The notes beneath the pieces were generated by a model. The model saw only the letters and a list, made by a program, of their open reading frames with translations. It searched no databases and had not been told where the DNA came from. Position numbers and translations under genes: made by a program. A stretch of DNA of 64,000 nt from Squalus acanthias (Eukaryota), in contig CM059432.1 of the NCBI GenBank assembly GCA_030390025.1, positions 96,164,001-96,228,000 of the forward strand. The letters run 5' to 3'. This document shows positions 28,827 to 60,029 of this stretch, one piece after another. Position 1 is the first letter of the stretch. The number at the start of each line of letters is the position of its first letter.

Positions 28827-30012
28827 TCATTGGAATCAGAGTCTGATGACCCATTCATGGACAGCCCATCTGGAAGGGAAATTGTCTGCCTGCCTCCTCC
28901 CTCCCTCCTCTTCCTCTTCCTCTTGCACCTCGTTCTCTTCCTCATCCTCCTCCTCCTCTTCCTCATCCTCCTCCTCTTCTCCCTCCTCTCCCTTGTCCTC
29001 CTCCTGAGGTGGTCCCACAATCCCTGGTGGCAAGGGCGGCGCCCTCATGATGGCCAAGTTGTGAATCATGCAGCAGACCAGCACAAAATGGGAAACCCGC
29101 ACCGCCGAGTACTGGAGGGCTCCACTCGGGCGGTCAAGGCAGCGGAACCCTTGCTTTAGTAGCCCAATGGTCTGCTCGATGATGTTCCTGGTGGAAGCAT
29201 GGCTCTCATTATATGAGTGCTGGGCACAAGTGTTGGAGATGCGGAGGGGAGTCATGAGCCAGGTGGAGAGCAGATACCCCTTGTCTCTGAGCAGACACTC
29301 TCGAGTTTGCTGTGGCGACTGGAAGATTGCTGGCACACCGGACTGACGCAGGATGAAGAAATCATGGCTGCTGCCAGGATAGCAGCCATTGACATTGAGG
29401 AATCGCTGTGTGTGGTCGCACACCACCTGCACATTAAGTGAGTAGTAGCCTTTGCGGTTACGGAAGATCTCATGATTGTTATGCGGCGCCTGCAAAGCCA
29501 CGTGTGTGCAGTCAATGGCACACTGCACCATGGGAAAGCCCGCTATCCTGGCAAAGCCACATGCACACCCCACCTGCTTCTCTCTCCTCAGAGAGAAGGC
29601 AACGTAGTCCCTTCTCCTGGTGTAGAGAGCCTCTAGGATGCAGCGATGGACAGCGAACTGTGAGATGTTAGCTATGTCTCCTACTGGTGAAGAAACTGAG
29701 GGCTATGGTGACCTTGACTGCCACTGGGAGAGCCGTGTTTGCCCTGCTCTCAGGCCACAGGTCTGGTTGCAGGAGGTGGCAGATTTCTGTGACCACCTCC
29801 TTGGTGAAGCATAGCCTCCTAATACACTGCTCCTCACTTCAGTGGAGGTAGAAGTGCTGTTGGAAGACCCTAGGTGGGTAAACCCTCCTGTTGAGAGCCC
29901 TCATGGCCCTCCTCCTCCTCCCTCTGTGTGCATGCACCCGTCATCCTTACTGCCTCCGCTTCCTCTGCTGAAGATCCTGGAGCATGAGGTCGACTGCCAG
30001 TATAGTCCCCAT
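28827..30012 (-). pseudogene. Harbinger DDE transposase, full span but frameshifted
   Basis: ATG at 30012; AIDCTHV, RKGYYSLNVQVVCD, YPGSSHD, DKGY, RNIIEQTIGLLKQGFRCL, CCMIHN. Confidence 0.9.
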
Positions 30013-30061: not shown

Positions 30062-31737
30062 TGTAAGGGGTTCTGTGTCGTGCTTGTATCGCAGACGGTG
30101 CTGGTGCGGGGTTAGGCCTTCATTGCCTAATACTACTGCTTGCTCTGGTCTCCGGCCAGCCTTGTTGCAATAAGCACCTGTGAGTGGTTCGACCCACTCG
30201 CCCTTACGGTTCTAACACTGGACTTAGGTGCGAGAGCAGTAATGCAGAGAAAAACTCAAATAGACTCGGTTGAATAGTACGAAATGGAAATCTTTATTGC
30301 ATAGCGTCTAAAATCATGAAGTACATATCATAGGCACAAATTAACGATAGTACAAGTATACATACATTCATAAAGCTTGGTCTATGGTAATGAAGAACGC
30401 ACGGCACATCGTAAAAAGGGGAACACATTATACTTTATCCTTAATAAAACCACCCTCCCCTATCAATACCTACACTACATCTAGATTTGTAGGATCGGGA
30501 AACATGCTCACCACTCGTGATACTTCGAAGAATTTTAAAGTGAGGCGCTCGGCTCGTTTCGCTGCAGCGCCTGACTGTCACGTGTTTTGAGGGGTCTCTG
30601 TACCCCACTTGTTTACTTTTGCTGCTGCTGCAAGCAGGCTGGGCTCCCCGTTGTCATGAAGAACTCGACAGTGCTCAGGCCCGGTTCGAAGAAGAGTCTT
30701 CCTGTGTCTGACACCGGTTGCCGGTAGAATTCAAAGAAGAGTCTTTGACCAGTTCGTGCAGTAACCTGTAGAGTTCAAAAATGGTCTATATATTTTCGGG
30801 CGCGGTCGGGGTTTACTGACCGCGGCGGCACGTGCATTCTTCTTCTTCTCTTCTCATCTCGTCTCGTCTCGTCTCTTCGGGCCTTCGGGTCCAGAACACC
30901 GTTTACCGACGCTCGGGATGGTGCACCCGGTTACCGGCCTTCGTCGAGGCGGCTCGTTCCGTTCGAGCTCCACCCAACATTCGAATAACCGTCCAGTGCG
31001 GCTAAAAGTCCAGAGTCAACAGTCCAGAGAAACAAGAGCACGAATCAAGCGAATAAGAATCGAATCAAGGGAATAAGAGAATAAGAGCCGAATCAAGCGC
31101 GCGATGGACATTTGTTGTCTATAGTTATAGTGTTGTGTTCCCTTATCTCCCGCTCAAATCTTAATGTTTGTCCTTTGTGAAATATTGGCGCTCAAAACTC
31201 CCAGCATGGGGTGATTCTTGTCTTTAACGGGTTTCGGTAGCACCTGAGACTGGTCAACTACCCGTTAATGTTTTCCCCATTGTTGAACCGGCTCGGAGCC
31301 TCCCTGGCTGGGTTTTGGGGGCCCCCGAATACTTGTTTAATCACCCGAGAATGGCTCTCTCATTGTAGAGCCGTTGGGGTATTTGCGTATTGATGTGTCT
31401 GGATGGGCCTTCGATTGCCCAGTACAATGGTCCTTACTTGTGCATGGAAAACGATTCCAGCACTCATATCTTATGCTATTGTTTCGAATGCAAACATGTT
31501 GCATCCTGTCTTTATCAATGTCTGCTGAGTATTATCCAATCTTATACTGAAATGTTTATTCGAACGCCATCTTGTCTGCCCACTGAAAATTCTGGAAGCT
31601 TCTGTCACGATGCGTGGTGGCCATTTTACAGGCTTCTGTGTCCTTTTTAATCATGACAGCATTTCGTTTAAATAAACTGATTAAACGAATCTGTTTCTCT
31701 CTCGTTATTTTGAATCGCGATAATTGCGAATTTTACA
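30062..31737 (-). repeat. 3' LTR (1676 bp)
   Basis: Direct repeat of 37642-39317; about 15 substitutions counted by eye, no indels. Confidence 0.97.
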
Positions 31738-32131: not shown

Positions 32132-33619
32132 TCACGTGGAACTTTCCTCGTTCACGCGCACGTAACGTTCTCTCCACTCTCCTGTGTTCTCCTGCTTTGT
32201 GAGGCGTCTGCCTCTCTTGCAGTGCACGACCAATAGGTACACTACTATTATGACTTGGCACACAACTAAAATGTGGGAGGCTATCCTGATCCATGAAGGA
32301 ACTTCAATATTGGTGAACAGGTCCCACCACGGTGGGATCACTATGTCCAAAATTTCTGTCCCTATCTCGACAGACTTTTGTTCCAGGGTGTAAAAATGTT
32401 TTTGTGATACCGCAACGGCTTTCAAAAGCTTGGTGAGGTGCTCAGGGAGAGGGGGAATGATGTATCCGAAATGCGTGACGAATCGCTGCAAGTCGGTGAA
32501 ATTCTCTTTTACTGTGAGATGAACAGTGGATGGTTCAGGGATCGGGACAATTCGCTGTTGTGCCACTTGAACTTCAACCCTGGGTTTAAAACAGAAACTG
32601 CTGTCACTCACCGGACACCGGCTGCGGTTTCCATGCTGGTAGTGTTGCGCTGCCGTGGTAACGCAATATGTTCCACCCCCAATGTATGCCACCTGCGGAT
32701 GCACATGATCTTGTGTTATTGCTTCCATGGTGCAATTCATGGGCTTGGCGCCAGCCGTTCTGAACCCGCATTGTGGTGTTAAAAAGGCATTCAAGTGCTT
32801 GGGACACAGTATTATGTGTGCTCCCCGGCCATGACAACCCGATAGGTCGGTACCTGTCATCGTTTGCTCCCAGCGGATGACGTAAGGTGGGACTGCTGCG
32901 TAGCGAATGTGGGCTCCCCCCTGAATGACACCAATGTTCTCTACCCGATACACCGGGGCGGGCTTTGCTGTGTCGCCCAAGACCGGCATACGTAGTACTA
33001 TACCCATGATGGTATGGTTTGACCGTCCGCAGTCCACGGGGACTGGGTATGCCTCTGAGGCTAGCCTGAGCTGGCACGGGCTTAATGCGTTCTGAAAAGG
33101 GTGGAGCGCCTGCAGGTGTTTGTTACTTATCCAGGACGGGACCAAACCTTGTTTTAAATCCTCCAAATTACTGCAGCCCTCGCCCAGTAACCACGCCCCG
33201 TATAGTACGCACACCTCGTTCTGCGCAGCTTGATCGGATGCATTCCGATCTTCCCTAATCAGGGCATTTACCGTTCTCGCATACTTCTCCAGCTCTGCTA
33301 TAATCTCGTTTAAGTGTAGTGTCATGGCCTGGTCCTCATGTAACTCAGACCCTACTACCTTGTTTTCGCTTGTGAGGATGCTTTTTAATTGTGTTTTTAA
33401 ACCATTGATCTGGGTCTGCAGCTCCACGTTGTCTAGAGCGTTGACCACAGATGTTCCTGTATTAAAGGCGGTGAACATATCGTTCACAATACCCCTTCTT
33501 TGTCTCCCCACCTGACCCAAAACTTCGTGTGGTGTGGTGTACAAGCTTGTTTTGTCAATCTCTGCAAAATCAAACTCGTAGAATTGTCTGAACATGTTTG
33601 TCAACAGGACCTGGTACAA
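32132..33619 (-). CDS. env: Env C-terminal part: F-like class I fusion glycoprotein
   Basis: RQRR furin site (33494-33505), putative fusion peptide GIVNDMFTAF, heptad repeat, Cys-rich region, second heptad, W-rich segment, TM IASHILVVCQVIIVVYLLVV, tail with YVRV. Confidence 0.85.
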   Translation of the reverse strand: MYQVLLTNMFRQFYEFDFAEIDKTSLYTTPHEVLGQVGRQRRGIVNDMFTAFNTGTSVVNALDNVELQTQINGLKTQLKSILTSENKVVGSELHEDQAMTLHLNEIIAELEKYARTVNALIREDRNASDQAAQNEVCVLYGAWLLGEGCSNLEDLKQGLVPSWISNKHLQALHPFQNALSPCQLRLASEAYPVPVDCGRSNHTIMGIVLRMPVLGDTAKPAPVYRVENIGVIQGGAHIRYAAVPPYVIRWEQTMTGTDLSGCHGRGAHIILCPKHLNAFLTPQCGFRTAGAKPMNCTMEAITQDHVHPQVAYIGGGTYCVTTAAQHYQHGNRSRCPVSDSSFCFKPRVEVQVAQQRIVPIPEPSTVHLTVKENFTDLQRFVTHFGYIIPPLPEHLTKLLKAVAVSQKHFYTLEQKSVEIGTEILDIVIPPWWDLFTNIEVPSWIRIASHILVVCQVIIVVYLLVVHCKRGRRLTKQENTGEWRERYVRVNEESST

Positions 33620-34483
33620 TTATTCCGTCTCTTTGGGGCACCACTCTGGTAACCGCACCTTGGTGAGATTTAGAATCACCGAAGCCACCGCGTAATGTAC
33701 CCCTTGAAATAGTATCTGGTCCGTTGGGACCAGTACCAAACCATTCCCGGGCCCCTTAGTGGCTTTAGGGCACCCTTCCTCCTGAGCCAAAACCACCGGA
33801 ATCGTGGGCGGAGCCTTGCGTGGGCGCGTGATGAGTTCAGTGGCGTTTACCGGGATCGGGGAGAATGGGGCTCCGCACCCCTTTGTGCTGACATCCCACC
33901 TCATCCCTTTCCCGTTATCCTGCCACTGGTGTACGAAAAATATGGATATACCCTTGGGGCAAACGTACTTCGATCCCCACATACAAACATATATTCCCTC
34001 ATCCGGTTCCCACCATTTGTCCCAACAGACTTTCAATTGTCCGTTAGTCCCCGTAATTGTCCGATGGGTATTGTTACCCAATCGCTCCCACTCAACCGAG
34101 GAATTTCTCATAGTCTTGCTTAACTTCCATAACCAGCACCCTCGGCTCAATGGGACCTTCCCATTGCATGTCAAACAATTCCTTTTGCCGACGGTGACGC
34201 TGATTCTGGGTGCAATGATCCTCACTCTGGGGCACAGTAAAGAAGTCTCTTTGTAGGCAAATCCGGATGCGCTGAAGTATTCCGTTGAATTCGTTCCCAG
34301 CCATCCTGGCCACCTTCCCTTGTGGAAATAAGTGGCGGTCTCCTCAGCCTTTCGCTCCCCGGTCCCATCCGTCGCGATGGGGGCCGTGTCCCCGGAGCAA
34401 CCAAACACAACGACATCCTTAGTGAGGCCCCGATAGGCCAATCCATATCCGATCGTTGCGAGCACTATCAGAATCCTTTCCAT
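33620..34483 (-). CDS. env: Env N-terminal part: signal peptide plus Ig-like domain; in frame with 32132-33619 across one TAA
   Basis: MERILIVLATIGYGLA signal; CLTC...WLWK...DEGIYVC; several N-x-S/T sites. Confidence 0.8.
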   Translation of the reverse strand: MERILIVLATIGYGLAYRGLTKDVVVFGCSGDTAPIATDGTGERKAEETATYFHKGRWPGWLGTNSTEYFSASGFAYKETSLLCPRVRIIAPRISVTVGKRNCLTCNGKVPLSRGCWLWKLSKTMRNSSVEWERLGNNTHRTITGTNGQLKVCWDKWWEPDEGIYVCMWGSKYVCPKGISIFFVHQWQDNGKGMRWDVSTKGCGAPFSPIPVNATELITRPRKAPPTIPVVLAQEEGCPKATKGPGNGLVLVPTDQILFQGVHYAVASVILNLTKVRLPEWCPKETE

Positions 34484-34757
34484 CTTTCCTGGTTCCTGTG
34501 ATCAGATAAAATGATGTAGCCAGCCTCCCAAGAGTCTCTGGCTTTTGTGAAGGGTGAGCTGGTCCATGACCTCGTCTCACGTATAACGACATGTATGCTG
34601 GATAGACTTTAACTATTCCTATCACTAAAACTCCCATCACTTTACCATTTACCTTTAAAATTAAACTACAAACTTACCAAACTTACAAACTTAAACTTAA
34701 ACTTATAAACTTATAAACTTATACTGTACAGCGCCGCCCGTTCCCAGGGCGGCCTAC

Positions 34758-35837
34758 CTAAATTCTGTGAAGGCTGCCACGAGCTTTTCCCAGTGGTGGG
34801 AGGGCACTGACCCCTTCCTTTGATCTGCCACAGCCTGTCGCCGCTGCGCTGGGACTGGGATCTCCCTGGGCTGCCTTGAACTTGAACTTACGCCTGGGGG
34901 CGTACGGGGGACTTGACCACGACTTCCTGGGCTGGGGTGTCCGACCTGACCTACGGAGGGCTACTTTGGGCAAGATTTCCAGGGCCGACGGACCAGGAAC
35001 CAAGACTTCCACCGTCACGGCCTGTGGTCCTACCACAGCCGCTGGCTCCATCTCCCCTGGCTCCGCCCCCCTGAACTCGGGATTTGCAGCTTTTGGTTCC
35101 ACCCTACTTGGCCCAGTATGTGGTCCTCCACTCGCAATCCCTACCTCCCCCAAGGGCAAGACTTCCAGGGCCGACGGATCGGGTATCGAGACTTCCACCG
35201 TCACGACCTGTGGTCCTACCACAGCCGCTGGCTCCGTCTCCCCTGGCCCCGCCCCCCTGGGCTCGGGATCTGCAGTTTCTGATTCCACCCTGTGTGGATC
35301 TCCACTCGCAGCCCCTATCTCCCCTGAGCTTGAGTCGAGGACGAAACTTTCGTCCTCCGACCCCAGCACCTCTCCGATCGGGTCACTACCTTGGTCGAGC
35401 TCCTCGAGCTCTTCCTCATCTGAATCCCAACCCCAAGAAAAGATCCTACACTTTTCTAGAATGTCCTCTCCCCTCAAGCAGGCTGCTTTACCGGTCTGTG
35501 TGCCTTGCGGTCCTACCCGGGGCTGCGAGTCCCCACTCGCAGGTTTGGCCCCTCCCCTGAGACAGGCCACCGCCCCTGCTTGTGCCTTCTGTGAAATCTC
35601 GCCTGCTGGAGGCTGCAGATTTCTATTCTGTTTTAAATCCTCATACTCCCTGCTCCTGGCTACCCTGTAGGCTGCTTTTATGTCTCTAAGCTGCCCTTCC
35701 AGCCCGTCTACCTTCCCCATTAAACGGGCGTTCTCCTCCCGCAAGGTCTGCTCTTTTAACCTGGCCTCCTTACAGGAGACCACCTCCTGTGCGCGTCTTT
35801 CAAGGGGACACAGGCAGGCAGGCTGCACCGGTTCCAG
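34758..35837 (-). CDS. ORF2: Gag-like coiled coil, acidic/Pro-rich tandem repeat, basic tail; in frame with gag, no ATG at its start
   Basis: Open from the codon after the gag TGA for 359 codons; no protease, RT, RNase H or integrase motifs seen. Confidence 0.7.
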   Translation of the reverse strand: MEPVQPACLCPLERRAQEVVSCKEARLKEQTLREENARLMGKVDGLEGQLRDIKAAYRVARSREYEDLKQNRNLQPPAGEISQKAQAGAVACLRGGAKPASGDSQPRVGPQGTQTGKAACLRGEDILEKCRIFSWGWDSDEEELEELDQGSDPIGEVLGSEDESFVLDSSSGEIGAASGDPHRVESETADPEPRGAGPGETEPAAVVGPQVVTVEVSIPDPSALEVLPLGEVGIASGGPHTGPSRVEPKAANPEFRGAEPGEMEPAAVVGPQAVTVEVLVPGPSALEILPKVALRRSGRTPQPRKSWSSPPYAPRRKFKFKAAQGDPSPSAAATGCGRSKEGVSALPPLGKARGSLHRI

Positions 35838-37637
35838 TCAGAAGCCTGGGTTGTATGGGGCTGTTGCTACCTCCCCGTGCGAAATCATAAGAGACCGCAT
35901 GGCTCCTAACATTGATTCTATCGCATCGGGATGGATAGGCACACCAGCTCCTTTCTCAGAGACAGGCGCTTGGGTTCGGACTGCGGGAGCTCTGTCCCTG
36001 GGGTCCTTCCAGGGATTCCTGCAGTTTTTACGCCAGTGACCTGTCTTCCCGCACCCGTAACAAACACCACTGGTTTGGGGGGCGCGATTTCCCTCCTGAT
36101 GCCACTCTTTCTGAGCCGGAGCTGCGGGCTTTGCCTCATGCACCTTTCCCTTAAGGGGACGCGCTCCCATGCTCCTAGTGTTCCGATACCCTATGGTGAG
36201 TCGATTTAGGACAGACTCCTCTGTTGTGGCGGGGTTAGTGGGATCAAACCACGCTCTGGCCTGCTCCCTGACGGCTGGCAAGCTGTTGGCTACTAAACAC
36301 CTGAGCCAATGAGCTTTCCCGGCGCCGTTCAGAAAGTTGCGCGCTGGCGCACCTGGGCAGCTACGCTGGTATACTGGCCACAGCCTGTGGGCGAAAACCT
36401 TCGGGGGTTCCCCCTCCATCTGTATGGTTTGACTCAATCTGACGAACTTACCTTCGTCATCCGCCCCTAACACTTCTAGGACCTCGTCCCTTAACTCCTC
36501 ATAGGTTTTATTTCCCCTCTTGCTCTCGTCTGAGAGACACTGAAGGATCAAGCTATCTAATGAGAACAGCAACATTTTGGTCTTTTCCACATCGTCGCAG
36601 CCATTAATTGCTGCGGTCTGTTCTACCTCCCTAAAGTGTACGGAAGGGTCGTCTGATTCGGACAGCTTCCGTACATGGCTAATCATTGCTCTCAGCTGGT
36701 GTGAGCTGTGAGGCAATACAAGCTGGTCCAGGACATCCCCGTCCTCCCCATTTTCCCCATTCGGGCCTCTCTTGTGACCTCGGAGCGGACACATCGGTCC
36801 CGGGCTCGACTCTACCTCCAGGGATTGTCCTACCTCGGGGACCTCCTTTTCTATTTCCACCACTTCCTCCCTTTCCCAGGTTGCCGAATAGCTGGGTGAT
36901 GCGGAGGGCACAGTGGCAAATACCTCCTCTGCTTTGTCTGGTAGGGATTTTGGGAATTCCCTACCCACCTGTGGCTGGTTTGCTGACGGGCTGATGAGGC
37001 ACACCATGCCGTTTGCCGTATTCATGGCCTCTCTTAGGTTCCCTAACTCCTTCTGGCAAACACTGTCATCGGCTCCCTCATGCCTATCCTCGAGGGCCAT
37101 CTTATATGCCGCCCTAACTCCCTTCAAGCTTTCTTCCAGGGCTTTTATCTGGGTAGCTAGGCGGGCACACCGTTCTCTAATCCTACCCTCGTTTAATTTC
37201 GCTTCCGTGACCTGACACTCTAGGTAATCAATTTTAGCCTCGTGGTGGTTGGCTACTATCTGGCGTTCCTGATGTAACGCATTCAAGGATGCAATGAGTT
37301 TCTGTCCCCCCGTGACCTTTAGCTCCATCTCAACTTCCAATTCCCTGATCTGAGCTGCCTGTGCTACAATGACCTGGTCCGAAAGTTGGACTTGCTTCTT
37401 GTAGCACATCAGCCAGACCACTTTCTCCACCGACTTCTTATGCTCTTTACTGCCTGTCCATTTGATGGCTGCGTCTAGCGGACGCTTATCCATCAGTAGG
37501 TCACTTATCCACCTTTTGGTTAAGTTAACCTTCCCAATCACATAGTCGGCTACCCTCTCATCCATCACATTTCGCCGATTCACACCAGGGTCTAAAACAT
37601 TACTCTCTCGCTGCCAGTGTCCTGCCGCGGTCGCCAT
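35838..37637 (-). CDS. gag: Gag polyprotein (coiled coil, capsid-like region, one CCHC knuckle); probable start at 37565
   Basis: 599 open codons; CYGCGKTGHWRKNC at 36021-36062; LSQTIQMEGEPPKVFAHRL is an MHR-like motif. Confidence 0.9.
   Translation of the reverse strand: MATAAGHWQRESNVLDPGVNRRNVMDERVADYVIGKVNLTKRWISDLLMDKRPLDAAIKWTGSKEHKKSVEKVVWLMCYKKQVQLSDQVIVAQAAQIRELEVEMELKVTGGQKLIASLNALHQERQIVANHHEAKIDYLECQVTEAKLNEGRIRERCARLATQIKALEESLKGVRAAYKMALEDRHEGADDSVCQKELGNLREAMNTANGMVCLISPSANQPQVGREFPKSLPDKAEEVFATVPSASPSYSATWEREEVVEIEKEVPEVGQSLEVESSPGPMCPLRGHKRGPNGENGEDGDVLDQLVLPHSSHQLRAMISHVRKLSESDDPSVHFREVEQTAAINGCDDVEKTKMLLFSLDSLILQCLSDESKRGNKTYEELRDEVLEVLGADDEGKFVRLSQTIQMEGEPPKVFAHRLWPVYQRSCPGAPARNFLNGAGKAHWLRCLVANSLPAVREQARAWFDPTNPATTEESVLNRLTIGYRNTRSMGARPLKGKVHEAKPAAPAQKEWHQEGNRAPQTSGVCYGCGKTGHWRKNCRNPWKDPRDRAPAVRTQAPVSEKGAGVPIHPDAIESMLGAMRSLMISHGEVATAPYNPGF
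37619..37636 (-). promoter_or_regulatory. Primer-binding site complementary to tRNA-Arg
   Basis: TGGCGACCGCGGCAGGAC matches the 3' 18 nt (GTCCTGCCGCGGTCG+CCA) of vertebrate tRNA-Arg(TCG) as I recall it; 5 nt from the LTR. Confidence 0.85.
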
Positions 37638-37641
37638 TATC

Positions 37642-39317
37642 TGTAAGGTGTTCTGTGTCGTGCTTGTATCGCAGACGGTGCTGGTGCGGGGTTAGGCCTT
37701 CGTTGCCTAATACTATTGCTTGCTCTGGTCTCCGGCCAGCCTTGTTGCAATAAGCACCTGTGAGTGGTTCGACCCACTCGCCCTTACGGTTCTAACACTG
37801 GACTTAGGTGCGAGAGCAGTAATGCAGAGAAAAACTCAAATAGACCCAGTTGAATAGTACGAAATGGAAATCTTTATTGCATAGCATCTAAAATCATGAA
37901 GTACATGTCATAGGCACAAATTAACGATAGTACAAGTATACATACATTCATAAAGCTTGGTCTATGGTAATGAAGAACGCACGGCACATCGTAAAAAGGG
38001 GAACACATTATACTTTATCCTTAATAAAACCACCCTCCCCTATCAATACCTACACTACATCTAGATTTGTAGGATCGGGAAACATGCTCACCACTTGTGA
38101 TACTTCGAAGAATTTTAAAGTGAGGCGCTCGGCTCGTTTCGCTGCAGCGCCTGACTGTCACGTGTTTTGAGGGGTCTCTGTACCCCACTTGTTTACTTTT
38201 GCTGCTGCTGCAAGCAGGCTGGGCTCCCCATTGCCATGAAGAACTCGACAGTGCTCAGGCCCGGTTCGAAGAAGAGTCTTCCTGTGTCCGACACCGGTTG
38301 CCGGTAGAATTCAAAGAAGAGTCTTTGACCAGTTCGTGCAGTAACCTGTAGAGTTCAAAAATGGTCTATATATTTTCGGGCGCGGTCGGGGTTTACTGAC
38401 CGCGGCGGCACGTGCATTCTTCTTCTTCTCTTCTCATCTCGTCTCGTCTCGTCTCTTCGGGCCTTCGGGTCCAGAACACCGTTTACCGACGCTCGGGATG
38501 GTGCACCCGGTTACCGGCCTTTGTCGAGGCGGCTCGTTCCGTTCGAGCTCCACCCAACATTCGAATAACCGTCCAGTGCGGCTAAAAGTCCAGAGTCAAC
38601 AGTCCAGAGAAACAAGAGCACGAATCAAGCGAATAAGAATCGAATCAAGGGAATAAGAGAATAAGAGCCGAATCAAGCGCGCGATGGACATTTGTTGTCT
38701 ATAGTTATAGTGCTGTGTTCCCTTATCTCCCGCTCAAATCTTAATGTTTGTCCTTTGTGAAATATTGGCGCTCAAAACTCCCAGCATGGGGTGATTCTTG
38801 TCTTTAACGGGTTTCGGTAGCACCTGAGACTGGTCAACTACCCGTTAATGTTTTCCCCATTGTTGAACCGGCTCGGAGCCTCCCTGGCTGGGTTTTGGGG
38901 GCCCCCGAATACTTGTTTAATCACCCGAGAATGGCTCTCTCATTGTAGAGCCGTTGGGGTATTTGCGTATTGATGTGTCTGGATGGGCCTTCGATTGCCC
39001 AGTACAATGGTCCTTACTTGTGCATGGAAAACGATTCCAGCACTCATATCTTATGCTATTGTTTCGAATGCAAACATGTTGCATCCTATCTTTATCAATG
39101 TCTGCTGAGTATTATCCAATCTTATACTGAAATGTTTATTCGAACGCCATCTTGTCTGCCCACTGAAAATTCTGGAAGCTTCTGTCACGATGCGTGGCGG
39201 CCATTTTACAGGCTTCTGTGTCCTTTTTAATCATGACAGCATTTCGTTTAAATAAACTGATTAAACGAATCTGTTTCTCTCTCGTTATTTTGAATCGCGA
39301 TAATTGCGAATTTTACA
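37642..39317 (-). repeat. 5' LTR (1676 bp)
   Basis: Direct repeat of 30062-31737, adjacent to the PBS. Confidence 0.97.
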
Positions 39318-56785: not shown

Positions 56786-57638
56786 TATATCTCAATCAAG
56801 TTAGCCAAACACAATTTGCCTTTAACAAATTCATGCTGGCTGTCATTGATTAACTCACTTTGTTTCAAGTTACAATTAATCTTGTCCCAAATTATAGTTT
56901 CTAAAAGTTTTCCCACCACTGATGTTAGGTTGACTGGCCTGCAGTTACCTGGTTTATCCCTGTCCTCTGTTTTGAACAGGAGTGCAATATTTGCAATTCT
57001 CCTGTCCTCTGGCACCAGTCCCATGTCTAAGGAGGATTGGAAGATTGTGACCAGAGCCTCTGCTATTTCCACCCTTACTTCCCTCAGCAACCGAGGATAC
57101 ATCCCATCCGGACTTGGTGACTTTTCTACTTTGAGTGCTGCAAACCTTTTAAATACCACCTCCTTATCTTTTTTTATCCTATCCAATTTCTCTACTTCCT
57201 CCTCCTTTACTGTGAGAAGTCGCACAACACCAGGTTATAGTCCAACAGCTTTATTTGAAATCACAAGCTTTCGGAGCGCTGCTCCTTCGTCAAGTGAAGT
57301 GAAGAGATGCATATAGGCACAGCATATATAGTCAGAGAACACTGCCAGATGATTACAGTTAATCTTTCTAACTGCCCTTTATCACACCTCGGCAGAGAGA
57401 TAATCACGGCAATCAAAGGTGTGGATGGTGTCCAAACAGGTCAGTCAGGAAAACATTACATCAAAGACAATGAGGTGGGGTCACAAGGGGTCAAATGTGG
57501 CAGATGCTGGAGTCTGTATGGAAAACAAAAAACTTTTTTTGCTGGAAATCACAGCAGGTCCGGCCGCATCTGTGTAGAGAGAACAAGCCAATGACGACTC
57601 GAGTCTGGATGACTCTATGATACTCCAAGATAGAGTCC

Positions 57639-60029
57639 ATGTTCTCAGCCTGTGCTCAGGACACAGCAGACCAGCTACGAGACACCTCCAAACAGATGAG
57701 GCAACGGAACTACGCTGCCTACATGCACACCAAGAACAGGAAGCTTGAGAAACTCGGCATCAGGACCAGCAGCAATGAAGCCTCCCCCGGTACCACGGTT
57801 GCAACCACAGGGAAGTCCATCGTCAACTTGTCCGACCACACCCTTCAACCAGACGAAATCGAAGATCTCAGCCGAGGGCTCAATTTCTGCTCCACCACCA
57901 AAATGGACCCCATCGGTCTCGCGGCAGACACAGAGGAATTCATCAGGAGAATGAGGCTCTGGGAATTCTTCCACGAATCCCAAGATGTCAGCAGCGAACC
58001 CAATGAGACAATCAATGATCCGGAACAGCAGACAGAGGGACCCGCAGTGCAGCAACTGAAGAAGAAAGAGTCAAATTGGACCCCTCCGGAGGGTCGCTGC
58101 CCTAAGCTAGACATATATGCTCAAGCTGTCAGCAGATGCATCAACGCCAGATTCATCAGCCGCACTCACAAGACAGTCCAGAATGTCACCCGAGCACAAC
58201 GCAACGCTATCCACGCTCTCAAGACCAACCGCAACATCGTCATCAAACCAGCGGACAAAGGAGGAGCCATCGTCATACCGAACAGAATGGACTATTGCAA
58301 AGAAGCATACCGACAACTGGACAACCAGGAACACTACAGACAGTTATCCGCAGATCCGACCAAAGAACACACCCGCCAACTCAATAGACTGATCAAGACC
58401 TTCGATCCAGACCTTCAAAGCATCCTACGCGCTCTCATCCCACGTACTCCCCGCGTGGGAGACTTCTACTGCCTCCCAAAGATACACAAAGGCAACACAC
58501 CCGGACGTCCTATCGTATCAGGCAACGGAACCCTGTGTGAGAACCTCTCTGGATACGTCGAGGGCATCCTGAAACCCATCGTACAGGGAACCCCCAGCTT
58601 CTGTCGCGACACTACAGACTTCTTACAGAAACTCAGCACCCACGGACCAGTTGAACCAGGAACACTCCTCACCACGATGGACGTCTCGGCACTCTACACC
58701 AGTATCCCCCACGATGATGGCATCGCTGCGACAGCCTCAGTACTCAACACCAACAACAGCCAATCTCCAGACGCCATCCTACAACTCATCCGCTTCATCC
58801 TTGATCACAAAGTCTTCACCTTCGACAACCAGTTTTTTACCCAAACACATGGAACAGCCATGGGGACCAAATTCGCACCCCAATACGCCAACATCTTCAT
58901 GCACAAGTTCGAGGAAGACTTCTTCGCTGCACAGGACCTCCAACCAACGCTATACACCAGATACATCGACGACATTTTCTTCCTATGGACCCACGGCGAA
59001 GAATCACTGAAAAGACTACACGATAACATCAACAAGTTCCATCCCACCATCAAACTCACCATGGACTACTCCTCAGAATCGGTTTCATTCTTGGACACAC
59101 GAATCTCCATCAAAGACAGACACCTCAGCACTTCACTCTACCGCAAGCCCACGGACAACCTCACGATGCTCCACTTCTCCAGCTTCCACCCTAACCACGT
59201 TAAAGAAGCCATCCCCTATGGACAAGCCCTGCGAATACACAGGATCTGCTCAGACAAGGAGGAATGCGATGGACACCTACAGACGCTGAAAGACGCCCTC
59301 GTAAGAACGGGATATGACGCTCGACTCGTCGATCGATAGTTCCGACGGGCCACAGTGAAAAATCGCATAGACCTCCTCAGAAGACAAACATGGGACACAA
59401 CCAACAGAGTACCCTACGTCGTCCAGTACTTCCCCGGAGCGGAGAAACTACGCCATGTTCTTCGCAGCCTTCAACATGTCATCGATGACGATGAACACCT
59501 CGCTAAGGCCATCCCCACGCCTCCACTATTCGTCTTCAAACAGCCGCCTAACCTCAAACAGACCATCGTTCGCAGCAAATTACCCAGCAACCATGACACC
59601 ATACAGCCCTGCCACGGCAACCTCTGCAAGACATGCCAGATCATCAACACAGATACCATCATCACACGTGAGGATACCACCCACCAGGTACATGGTACAT
59701 ACTCATGTGACTCGGCCAACGTTGTCTACCTCATACATTGCTGGAAAGGATGCCCCGGAGCATGGTACATCGGCGAGACCATGCAGACACTGCGACAACG
59801 TATGAATGGACACCGCGCAACAATCACCAGGCATGAGTGTTCCCTCCCAGTCGGGGAACACTTCAGCAGTCAAGGACATTCAGCCTCCGATCTTCGGGTA
59901 AGGGTTCTCCAAGGCGGCCTTTGAGACACACGACAACGCAAAATCGTCGAGCAGAAACTGATAGCCAAGTTCCGCACCCATGAGGACGGCCTCAACCGGG
60001 ATCTTGGGTTCATGTCACGCTACATGTAA
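57639..60029 (+). pseudogene. Penelope RT plus GIY-YIG endonuclease, single frame with two nonsense codons (59337 TAG, 59922 TGA)
   Basis: IKPADKGG, LPKIHK, DVSALYTSIP, GTAMG, RYIDD; VVYLI...YIGET; GLN at the C terminus. Confidence 0.95.

Follow-up and report, generated by a model that had tools for sequence, protein, structure and literature searches.

A window of 64,000 nucleotides from Squalus acanthias (contig CM059432.1, positions 96,164,001 to 96,228,000 of the forward strand) was found to contain, on its minus strand, a provirus with two long terminal repeats (LTRs) that enclose gag, a second open reading frame (ORF2) and env, and that lacks pol. Sequence comparison indicates that the gag stop of this element, UGA followed by CUG, very probably goes back to a lokiretrovirus-like ancestor, in which it served as the type II readthrough stop between gag and pol. 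We infer, with somewhat better than even confidence, that the stop is still leaky, and we infer the size of the leak in the same way. In the scheme proposed here the ancestor would have been a pol-bearing, lokiretrovirus-like element, from whose gag-pol readthrough signal the present stop would descend. Pol would then have been lost through rearrangements that left about 19 codons behind the stop, followed by an inserted piece of a Gag coiled coil and by the Pol tail, with the frame kept throughout. Most ribosomes would terminate and release a Gag of 599 residues, and a small share, of the order of 1% to a few percent, would insert an amino acid at the UGA and produce a 959-residue Gag-ORF2 protein replacing Gag-Pol. 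Positions below are those of the window, with the strand in brackets.

The gag stop codon and its reading frame

The stop codon TGA of gag occupies 35840-35838 (-), with GGC TTC before it and CTG GAA CCG GTG after it, and ORF2 (35837-34758, -) follows in the same frame for 359 codons. The minus-strand sequence thus bears out an earlier note on this DNA, which had described gag as ending in TTC TGA CTG in frame with ORF2. That note was also right that ORF2 has no ATG at its start: methionine is found at codons 40 and 263 only, so that the first ATG is codon 40. With the stop read as X, the combined frame comprises 959 residues (935 if gag starts at Met25), close to the approximately 950 that had been suggested for a Gag-ORF2 frame. 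None of 20000 base shuffles left ORF2 open and its two other frames contain 16 and 13 stops; the openness is largely explained by the construction of ORF2 from old coding frames.

Among the 76 sense-strand TGA triplets of the internal region a single one is followed by CT, and this one is the gag stop. Window-wide, on both strands, TGA-CT accounts for 130 of 2370 TGA triplets and TGA-CTR for 71 of 2370. The stop is located 60 residues behind the zinc knuckle, compared with 58-68 residues in seven related Gags. The uniqueness of the motif in the internal region and the similarity of this distance to that in relatives both argue for an inherited signal.

These figures also bear on the possibility that the TGA is a nonsense mutation private to this copy, in a family that otherwise has a continuous gag-ORF2 of 959 codons. 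The env of this copy likewise has an in-frame stop. Moreover, when the sequences are compared without gaps from the last conserved motif of Gag onward, an Arg of P0001 stands opposite the TGA, and the stop of the relatives falls 8-9 codons downstream, near a TGC which is also followed by CTG. Such a mutation, however, would need to have struck just before CT and at most nine codons from the homologous end of gag, a target of about 2% of the frame, and the knuckle-to-stop distance of 60 fits that of the relatives. We regard a private mutation as highly improbable.

Protein searches were also performed across the junction. With the read-through protein phmmer returned 28 matches, none of which was listed with its best stretch across the stop. 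Gag searched among proteins of 1050-2995 amino acids gave no match, which is weak evidence.

Comparison with lokiretrovirus junctions

The corresponding junctions of lokiretroviruses were read in the consensus set of 24 sequences from the supplement of PMC7947760, with frames counted by eye; here and below, statements on published work refer to the portions of each source that were available. Gag and pol form a single open reading frame in 10 of the 24 consensus sequences, indicating that an in-frame layout is general in lokiretroviruses, and the remaining 14 have a separate pol entry. Seven of these 14 could be covered (Bsp, Pyo, Ofa, Sau, Dcl, Lro and Tfu), the other seven being without a gag entry before pol. 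UGA-CUA is present at six of the seven readable junctions; in Tfu the third base before CUA is ambiguous. Five of the six (Pyo, Ofa, Sau, Dcl and Lro) have their annotated pol start in the same frame, with no stop between. In Bsp the annotated pol is one frame off, and the UGA-CUA frame reaches the motif with which pol of the others starts. The presence of UGA-CUA at these junctions, in frame with annotated pol in five of six, is a further ground for reading the gag stop of our element as inherited. Together with the location of ORF2 in the pol frame, it supports the proposal of the earlier note that the stop is an ancestral gag-pol readthrough signal. The pol entries in PMC7947760 begin at arbitrary downstream CTG, TTG or ATG codons.

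The terms 'readthrough' and 'stop codon' do not occur in the main text of PMC7947760, and term searches of the available portions of PMC7947760, PMC9040795, PMC12440569, PMC13524379 and PMC13517186 returned no mention of readthrough in lokiretroviruses. No prior report of UGA-CUA readthrough in this group was found in the literature searched, the cover of which stops short of subscription journals and Repbase, and the way in which pol is expressed in this sister group of retroviruses appears from the same literature to be unpublished. The finding of UGA-CUA at six of seven junctions would extend the repertoire of retroviruses by a type II signal and is the most transferable result of the analysis. 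The abstract of PMC7947760 names no cartilaginous fish, and a single Chondrichthyes row in the available part of its supplement gives three genomes and no positive.

Type of the readthrough signal

In alphaviruses UGA-CUA serves as the hexamer of type II readthrough; among the natural variants listed for them is UGACUG, in Trocara virus (PMC13517186). The sequence UGA-CUG shares five of the six letters of the canonical type II hexamer (CUA/CGG). In human-cell reporters readthrough amounted to 0.7% for UGA_C and about 1.5% for UGA-CUA, and ranged from 1.3 to 17% for UGA-CUAG contexts (PMC5868278).

The analogy with gamma- and epsilonretroviruses that had been drawn before did not hold, as the stop is of the UGA-C, type II-like kind and not UAG-G with a pseudoknot. 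With Moloney murine leukemia virus (MoMLV) as well as with walleye dermal sarcoma virus (WDSV) the element shares a layout in which a stop stands in frame behind the zinc knuckle and ahead of pro and fixes how much of the long product is made relative to Gag; the stop there, however, is of the UAG-G type III, accompanied in MoMLV by an H-type pseudoknot (PMC13517186). A type III context was not found here, the stop being UGA-C; this comparison covers the stop context alone, as the folding tools used do not handle pseudoknots. The three UGA cases among retroviruses in the available part of the same review are UGA-AGA, UGA-CGA and UGA-AGU, lokiretroviruses being unmentioned there, and according to it the only retroviral case with measured readthrough is UAG in gammaretroviruses (PMC13517186).

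Composition of ORF2

Judged from its sequence matches, ORF2 is a chimera in the gag frame that consists of a short stump, a piece of Gag coiled coil and a tail of Pol (Table 1). The coiled-coil piece matched residues 145-187 of the element's own Gag (E 3e-6) and scored 26.8 bits with a profile of 23 Gag sequences, whereas 300 shuffles reached at most 1.7 bits. Its identities were 17/43 to own Gag and 22/42 to P0032 of whale shark. At the DNA level identity to the element's own gag was about 48% (by codon position 0.53, 0.58 and 0.33), and no stop was present. We considered whether this piece could be the 'smc' gene of lokiretroviruses and dropped the idea: smc entries precede gag, and the piece matches Gag of the element's own family.

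Codons 96-358 aligned with residues 59-265 of P0010 with 37% identity over 264 columns (E 1e-29) and with the same end point. The first 49 residues of P0010 resemble the SH3-like domain at the C terminus of integrase, with a match to SH3_Tf2-1 (E 0.0022) that fell short of the family cut-off. ORF2 is therefore placed in the pol frame, since it matches the C-terminal tail of an integrase-bearing protein. This tail contains a 186-nt in-frame tandem duplication. Codons 1-19, judged by position only, are probably the start of the lost pro/pol. It had been proposed that this stump was joined in frame by the pol deletion; ORF2 does lie in the pol frame, but the stump abuts the Gag coiled coil and is not linked directly to the remnant of pol. 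Codons 1-170 searched among proteins of 197-629 amino acids gave no match. At its end ORF2 reads UAG-GUA-G (34760-34752, -), a hexamer found among the type III contexts in the review cited above, with 12 codons to the next stop; this is probably chance.

The chimeric make-up bears on how ORF2 could be translated. Reinitiation or internal entry after the gag stop might start it at Met40, which carries G at +4 and is found 117 nt downstream of the stop. This methionine, however, has U at -3 and stands amid the coiled-coil homology (codons 20-68), with no methionine counterpart in the aligned Gag segments, and codons 1-39 would have had no reason to stay open. Of the explanations considered, we find this one the least probable.

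The junction could alternatively be a splice acceptor, with UUCUGAC as the branch point, a C/U-rich polypyrimidine tract and the AG at 35797 or 35787, resulting in a Gag-N/ORF2 protein or in an mRNA translated from Met40. This anatomy is present in the sequence, donor-like sites of compatible phase exist in gag (36969 in phase 0; 37513 and 36301 in phase 2), and the element evidently splices to env. On the other hand, the AGs of the junction ranked 23, 39 and 62 of 531 by a crude score that placed the env acceptor first, and UGA-C by itself almost suffices to give the appearance of a branch point. Among the 15 of 44 joints listed from sibling contigs of four runs there was no such joint, which is a weak point, as these are contigs of related copies. 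Splicing is thus considered very unlikely as the basis of the junction.

RNA structure downstream of the stop codon

Stretches of 60-150 nt just downstream of the stop folded unremarkably (z from +0.40 to -1.39; a 51-nt hairpin had z -0.99). A fold of 207 nt contained an extended stem between +13..+34 and +120..+138 in both the minimum-energy and the centroid structure. Its 18 pairs had a probability of at least 0.97 in four of four folding contexts, and of 1902 positions of the element only 14 paired as strongly in the same geometry. Venezuelan equine encephalitis virus (VEEV) and chikungunya virus (CHIKV) have stems of this geometry, in which the spans are 126 nt and 127-133 nt, respectively (PMC13517186). 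Of the four sibling differences listed within 45 nt of the stop, three are at unpaired positions and the fourth replaces a G-U pair by A-U. However, 14 of 110 other stretches pair equally well with the 5' arm, and the energy of the stem is explained by a pyrimidine-rich arm on a purine-rich strand. As the 3' arm is located inside the inserted Gag piece, the stem, if real, would have been recruited after the rearrangement.

With alphavirus type II sites the element thus shares the UGA-CU context and a predicted stem that starts 13 nt past the stop and spans 126 nt. In alphaviruses, by contrast, the arms are conserved and tested and the product is a polymerase, whereas the present prediction is no stronger than in shuffled sequences. 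The predicted stem should be taken as a lead rather than a finding.

Related copies

Contigs of related copies, from four sequencing runs and two organisms, covered the whole element. The distances of contig ends imply that the join between stump and coiled coil is bridged in X1, X2 and X3 and that the stop is bridged in X1; the architecture is therefore not private to this copy. The comparison with these siblings listed 40 of 1539 differences, 12 of 138 indels, 15 of 44 joints and 24 of 621 loose ends. No difference at the gag stop is among the 40 listed, too small a share to count as evidence on the stop codon in siblings; the in-frame stop of env likewise has no row among them. Contig depth was higher over env than over gag/ORF2 and was not used as evidence. 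Eight sequencing runs share 8-21% of the element's words, and none is listed as RNA, the RNA status being a guess. Four metagenome loci were considered as siblings and dropped: they have 64-69% G+C, their matches were of 32-37% over 56-68 residues, and they had no match to gag-ORF2 or P0010.

Retention of readthrough and selection on ORF2

Several results weigh against an inherited signal that is still in use. The context is CUG here and CUA in all six lokiretrovirus cases, and no published measurement of UGA-CUG readthrough was found in the portions of the literature available. Scans of viral and metagenome contigs yielded nothing usable as pol-bearing sibling DNA, and the ancestral junction of the element's family was not seen in them. 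After the last conserved motif Gag has a tail of 8 residues, versus 16-17 in seven relatives, which puts the stop away from the position that is homologous without gaps; either the low-complexity tail may have been shortened or the stop may have moved. Membership in the lokiretroviruses is suggested only by likeness, as the element has no reverse transcriptase (RT) for phylogeny. The 207-nt fold (z -1.47) was equaled by 19 of 200 shuffles, and the stem was matched by 327 of 1000 target shuffles and by 263 of 1000 arm shuffles. The ratios of synonymous to nonsynonymous changes among the listed sibling differences, a small pre-filtered sample of 30, were 2:6 in ORF2, 11:4 in env and 2:5 in gag. 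In the tandem units of ORF2 the proportion of synonymous differences (pS) was 0.054 versus 0.129 for nonsynonymous ones (pN), and no amino-acid constraint on ORF2 was seen in the small samples at hand.

Such results could be expected if the stop is ancestral in origin and dead: the change to CUG and loss of the downstream pro sequence would have cut readthrough to background, and ORF2 would be open as a young stitch of old coding frames, two in-frame joins having a chance of 1 in 9. The lack of amino-acid constraint and a stem not above shuffles agree with this, and so do the LTRs of this copy, which at 99.1% identity leave little time for decay, as well as the gag-only lokiretroviruses (BHIKHARI), which have spread without any ORF2 (PMC12067270). 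Against it, the two joins and the one internal motif duplication of ORF2 are all in frame, and both ORF2 length variants listed in sibling contigs (15 of 44 joints being listed) have lengths divisible by three, namely 69 nt (X2, X4) and net 186 nt (X4). The coiled-coil piece, moreover, has remained stop-free at about half identity to own gag, with change mostly at third positions. A dead leftover appears unlikely. The pattern in ORF2 fits selection on the open frame rather than on the sequence, or no selection.

If the stop does leak, the leak is somewhat more readily seen as a leftover than as kept by selection, and a function of the Gag-ORF2 product or of the leak itself is proposed only tentatively. 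Two reported cases indicate how an open frame could be selected. The fusion ORF of mouse intracisternal A-particle (IAP) I-delta-1 was reported to be cis-acting and to aid retrotransposition (PMC6466679), and readthrough at 1-5% protects RNA with a long 3' untranslated region from nonsense-mediated decay, an effect that varies with how long the downstream ORF is (PMC5360307). By analogy, open-frame selection might operate here through a cis-acting fusion or through protection from decay.

A bolder and doubtful reading is that a helper-dependent retrovirus kept and rebuilt programmed readthrough after loss of its enzymes, with the stop and the first arm of the stem derived from the former gag-pro junction, the second arm coming from the inserted Gag fragment and ORF2 kept open by selection. 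If this were true, Gag-ORF2, with a second coiled coil and an acidic tail, might help to capture helper machinery in cis, or readthrough might shield the long RNA from decay; lokiretrovirus-like elements as a group would then use alphavirus-type UGA-CUA readthrough for pol. A signal kept under selection would show readthrough in use apart from any control of enzyme dosage, and would be a natural case for asking whether its product or RNA stability is what it is kept for. A leftover would be an ordinary deletion scar in a non-autonomous provirus.

Structure and affinities of the element

The provirus is young; its LTR pair has 15 differences over 1676 bp, and the element is bounded by a 4-bp target-site duplication, ACCT. 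Its features are listed in Table 1. Reading of the ORFs and Pfam searches revealed no protease, RT or integrase core in the element, and the presence of only the post-integrase tail of Pol is as expected for a deletion derivative. We take the primer-binding site to be that for tRNA-Arg(UCG). As the ATG at 37637 overlaps this site (37637-37619, -), the first gag residues are dictated by the tRNA. Met25 is conserved in seven of nine aligned Gags and may, on this alignment, be the true gag start.

Table 1. Features of the provirus, by window position
Feature	Position	Strand	Description
5' LTR	37642..39317	-	1676 bp, TG...CA
Primer-binding site	37619..37636	-	position read from sequence; overlaps first in-frame gag ATG
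gag	35838..37637	-	599 amino acids; N-terminal coiled coil, capsid, one CCHC knuckle
gag stop with context UGA-CUG-GAA	35832..35840	-	candidate type II readthrough site, compared with lokiretrovirus junctions
Predicted stem, 5' arm	35804..35825	-	pyrimidine-rich; +13 to +34 after stop
Predicted stem, 3' arm	35700..35718	-	+120 to +138; ORF2 codons 40-46, inside Gag-derived piece
ORF2 codons 1-19, stump	35781..35837	-	matches neither Gag profile (alignment begins at codon 20) nor P0010
ORF2 codons 20-68, diverged copy of Gag coiled coil	35634..35780	-	Gag profile and own-Gag match
ORF2 codons 70-95, partial duplicate of Pol-tail start	35553..35630	-	aligns to P0010 63-86 and ORF2 104-123
ORF2 codons 96-359, C-terminal Pol tail	34758..35552	-	acidic, Pro/Gly-rich
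env splice acceptor, probable	34484..34521	-	AG ending 34496; rank 1 of 531 AG sites, crude hand-made score
env with F-type fusion half	32132..34483	-	broken by in-frame stop 33622-33620 in this copy
3' LTR	30062..31737	-	polypurine tract before LTR

Gag is 58% identical to the RefSeq protein P0001 of Rhinoraja (skate), and further relatives were found in Scyliorhinus and whale shark. The Gag model (predicted local distance difference test, pLDDT, 71.5) has a long N-terminal helix at 68-183 followed by the capsid. The top rows of Foldseek were the capsids of murine leukemia virus (MLV), dArc, human T-lymphotropic virus 1 (HTLV-1) and PNMA2; MLV was the best with E 1.8e-3, and none was at E<=0.001. 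The zf-CCHC match had E 0.0025. The MuLV/Ty3-like capsid of lokiretroviruses is thus predicted here as well, but as it is common to other retroelements it gives no separation from them.

The combination of a putative F-type env with a coiled-coil Gag and an MLV-like capsid is lokiretrovirus-like. With lokiretroviruses the element shares the gag-pol-env layout, these features and an in-frame UGA-CU gag stop. It differs in having no pol enzymes (the lokiretrovirus pol with protease, RT, tether, RNase H and integrase is absent), in having a CCHC knuckle, CUG and an extra domain before the F-type half of env, and in its genome, which is of the cartilaginous-fish type. Zebrafish BHIKHARI Bik-1 and Bik-2 are, like it, non-autonomous lokiretrovirus relatives with a coiled-coil Gag and no pol; unlike it, they have gag only, without env and, in the available part of the source, without a reported second in-frame ORF (PMC12067270).

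An in-frame fusion ORF of Gag and a Pol remnant in an enzyme-less provirus was found here too, though with a stop codon separating the parts. Mouse IAP I-delta-1 is likewise a non-autonomous retroviral deletion derivative with an in-frame Gag/Pol-tail fusion ORF, but it makes the fusion only, as one continuous ORF, and has no env (PMC6466679). The main product of our element is intact Gag; a fusion would be made in minor amounts under the control of recoding and would carry an extra Gag coiled coil.

env and other features of the window

The C-terminal half of env had Baculo_F and Fusion_gly as language-model neighbors (0.93-0.96), with a recognition value below the reliable level. Lokiretrovirus Env resembles the F protein of paramyxo- and pneumoviruses and has a basic cleavage site and a transmembrane segment; in the present env an RQRR site and a C-terminal hydrophobic helix are present. 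Searches of Pfam and PDB sequences returned no family or homologue of env, and a single-sequence model (pLDDT 36.9) was unusable. About 250 residues (34483-33700, -) precede the F-type part, with TLV_coat as neighbor (0.93-0.95) and low recognition. A short T-rich tandem run is located at 34740-34640 (-), between ORF2 and env and upstream of the env acceptor. Inside gag (-) there are one perfect and one near-perfect splice-donor consensus, at 36452 and 36969; the latter agrees in phase with the env acceptor at 34496, and a Gag-N/Env fusion transcript could result from the pair.

Elsewhere in the window, ORFs for LINE-type RT (RVT_1) were observed at 18467-20500 (+) and 57621-59339 (+), and tblastn showed them to be unrelated to the missing pol. 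Three 73-bp tandem units, with a T-run at the end, are present at 16029-16254 (+). The provirus is inserted just upstream of a frame of 288 codons (28836-29702, -), which presumably resembles a Harbinger-type transposase-derived nuclease.

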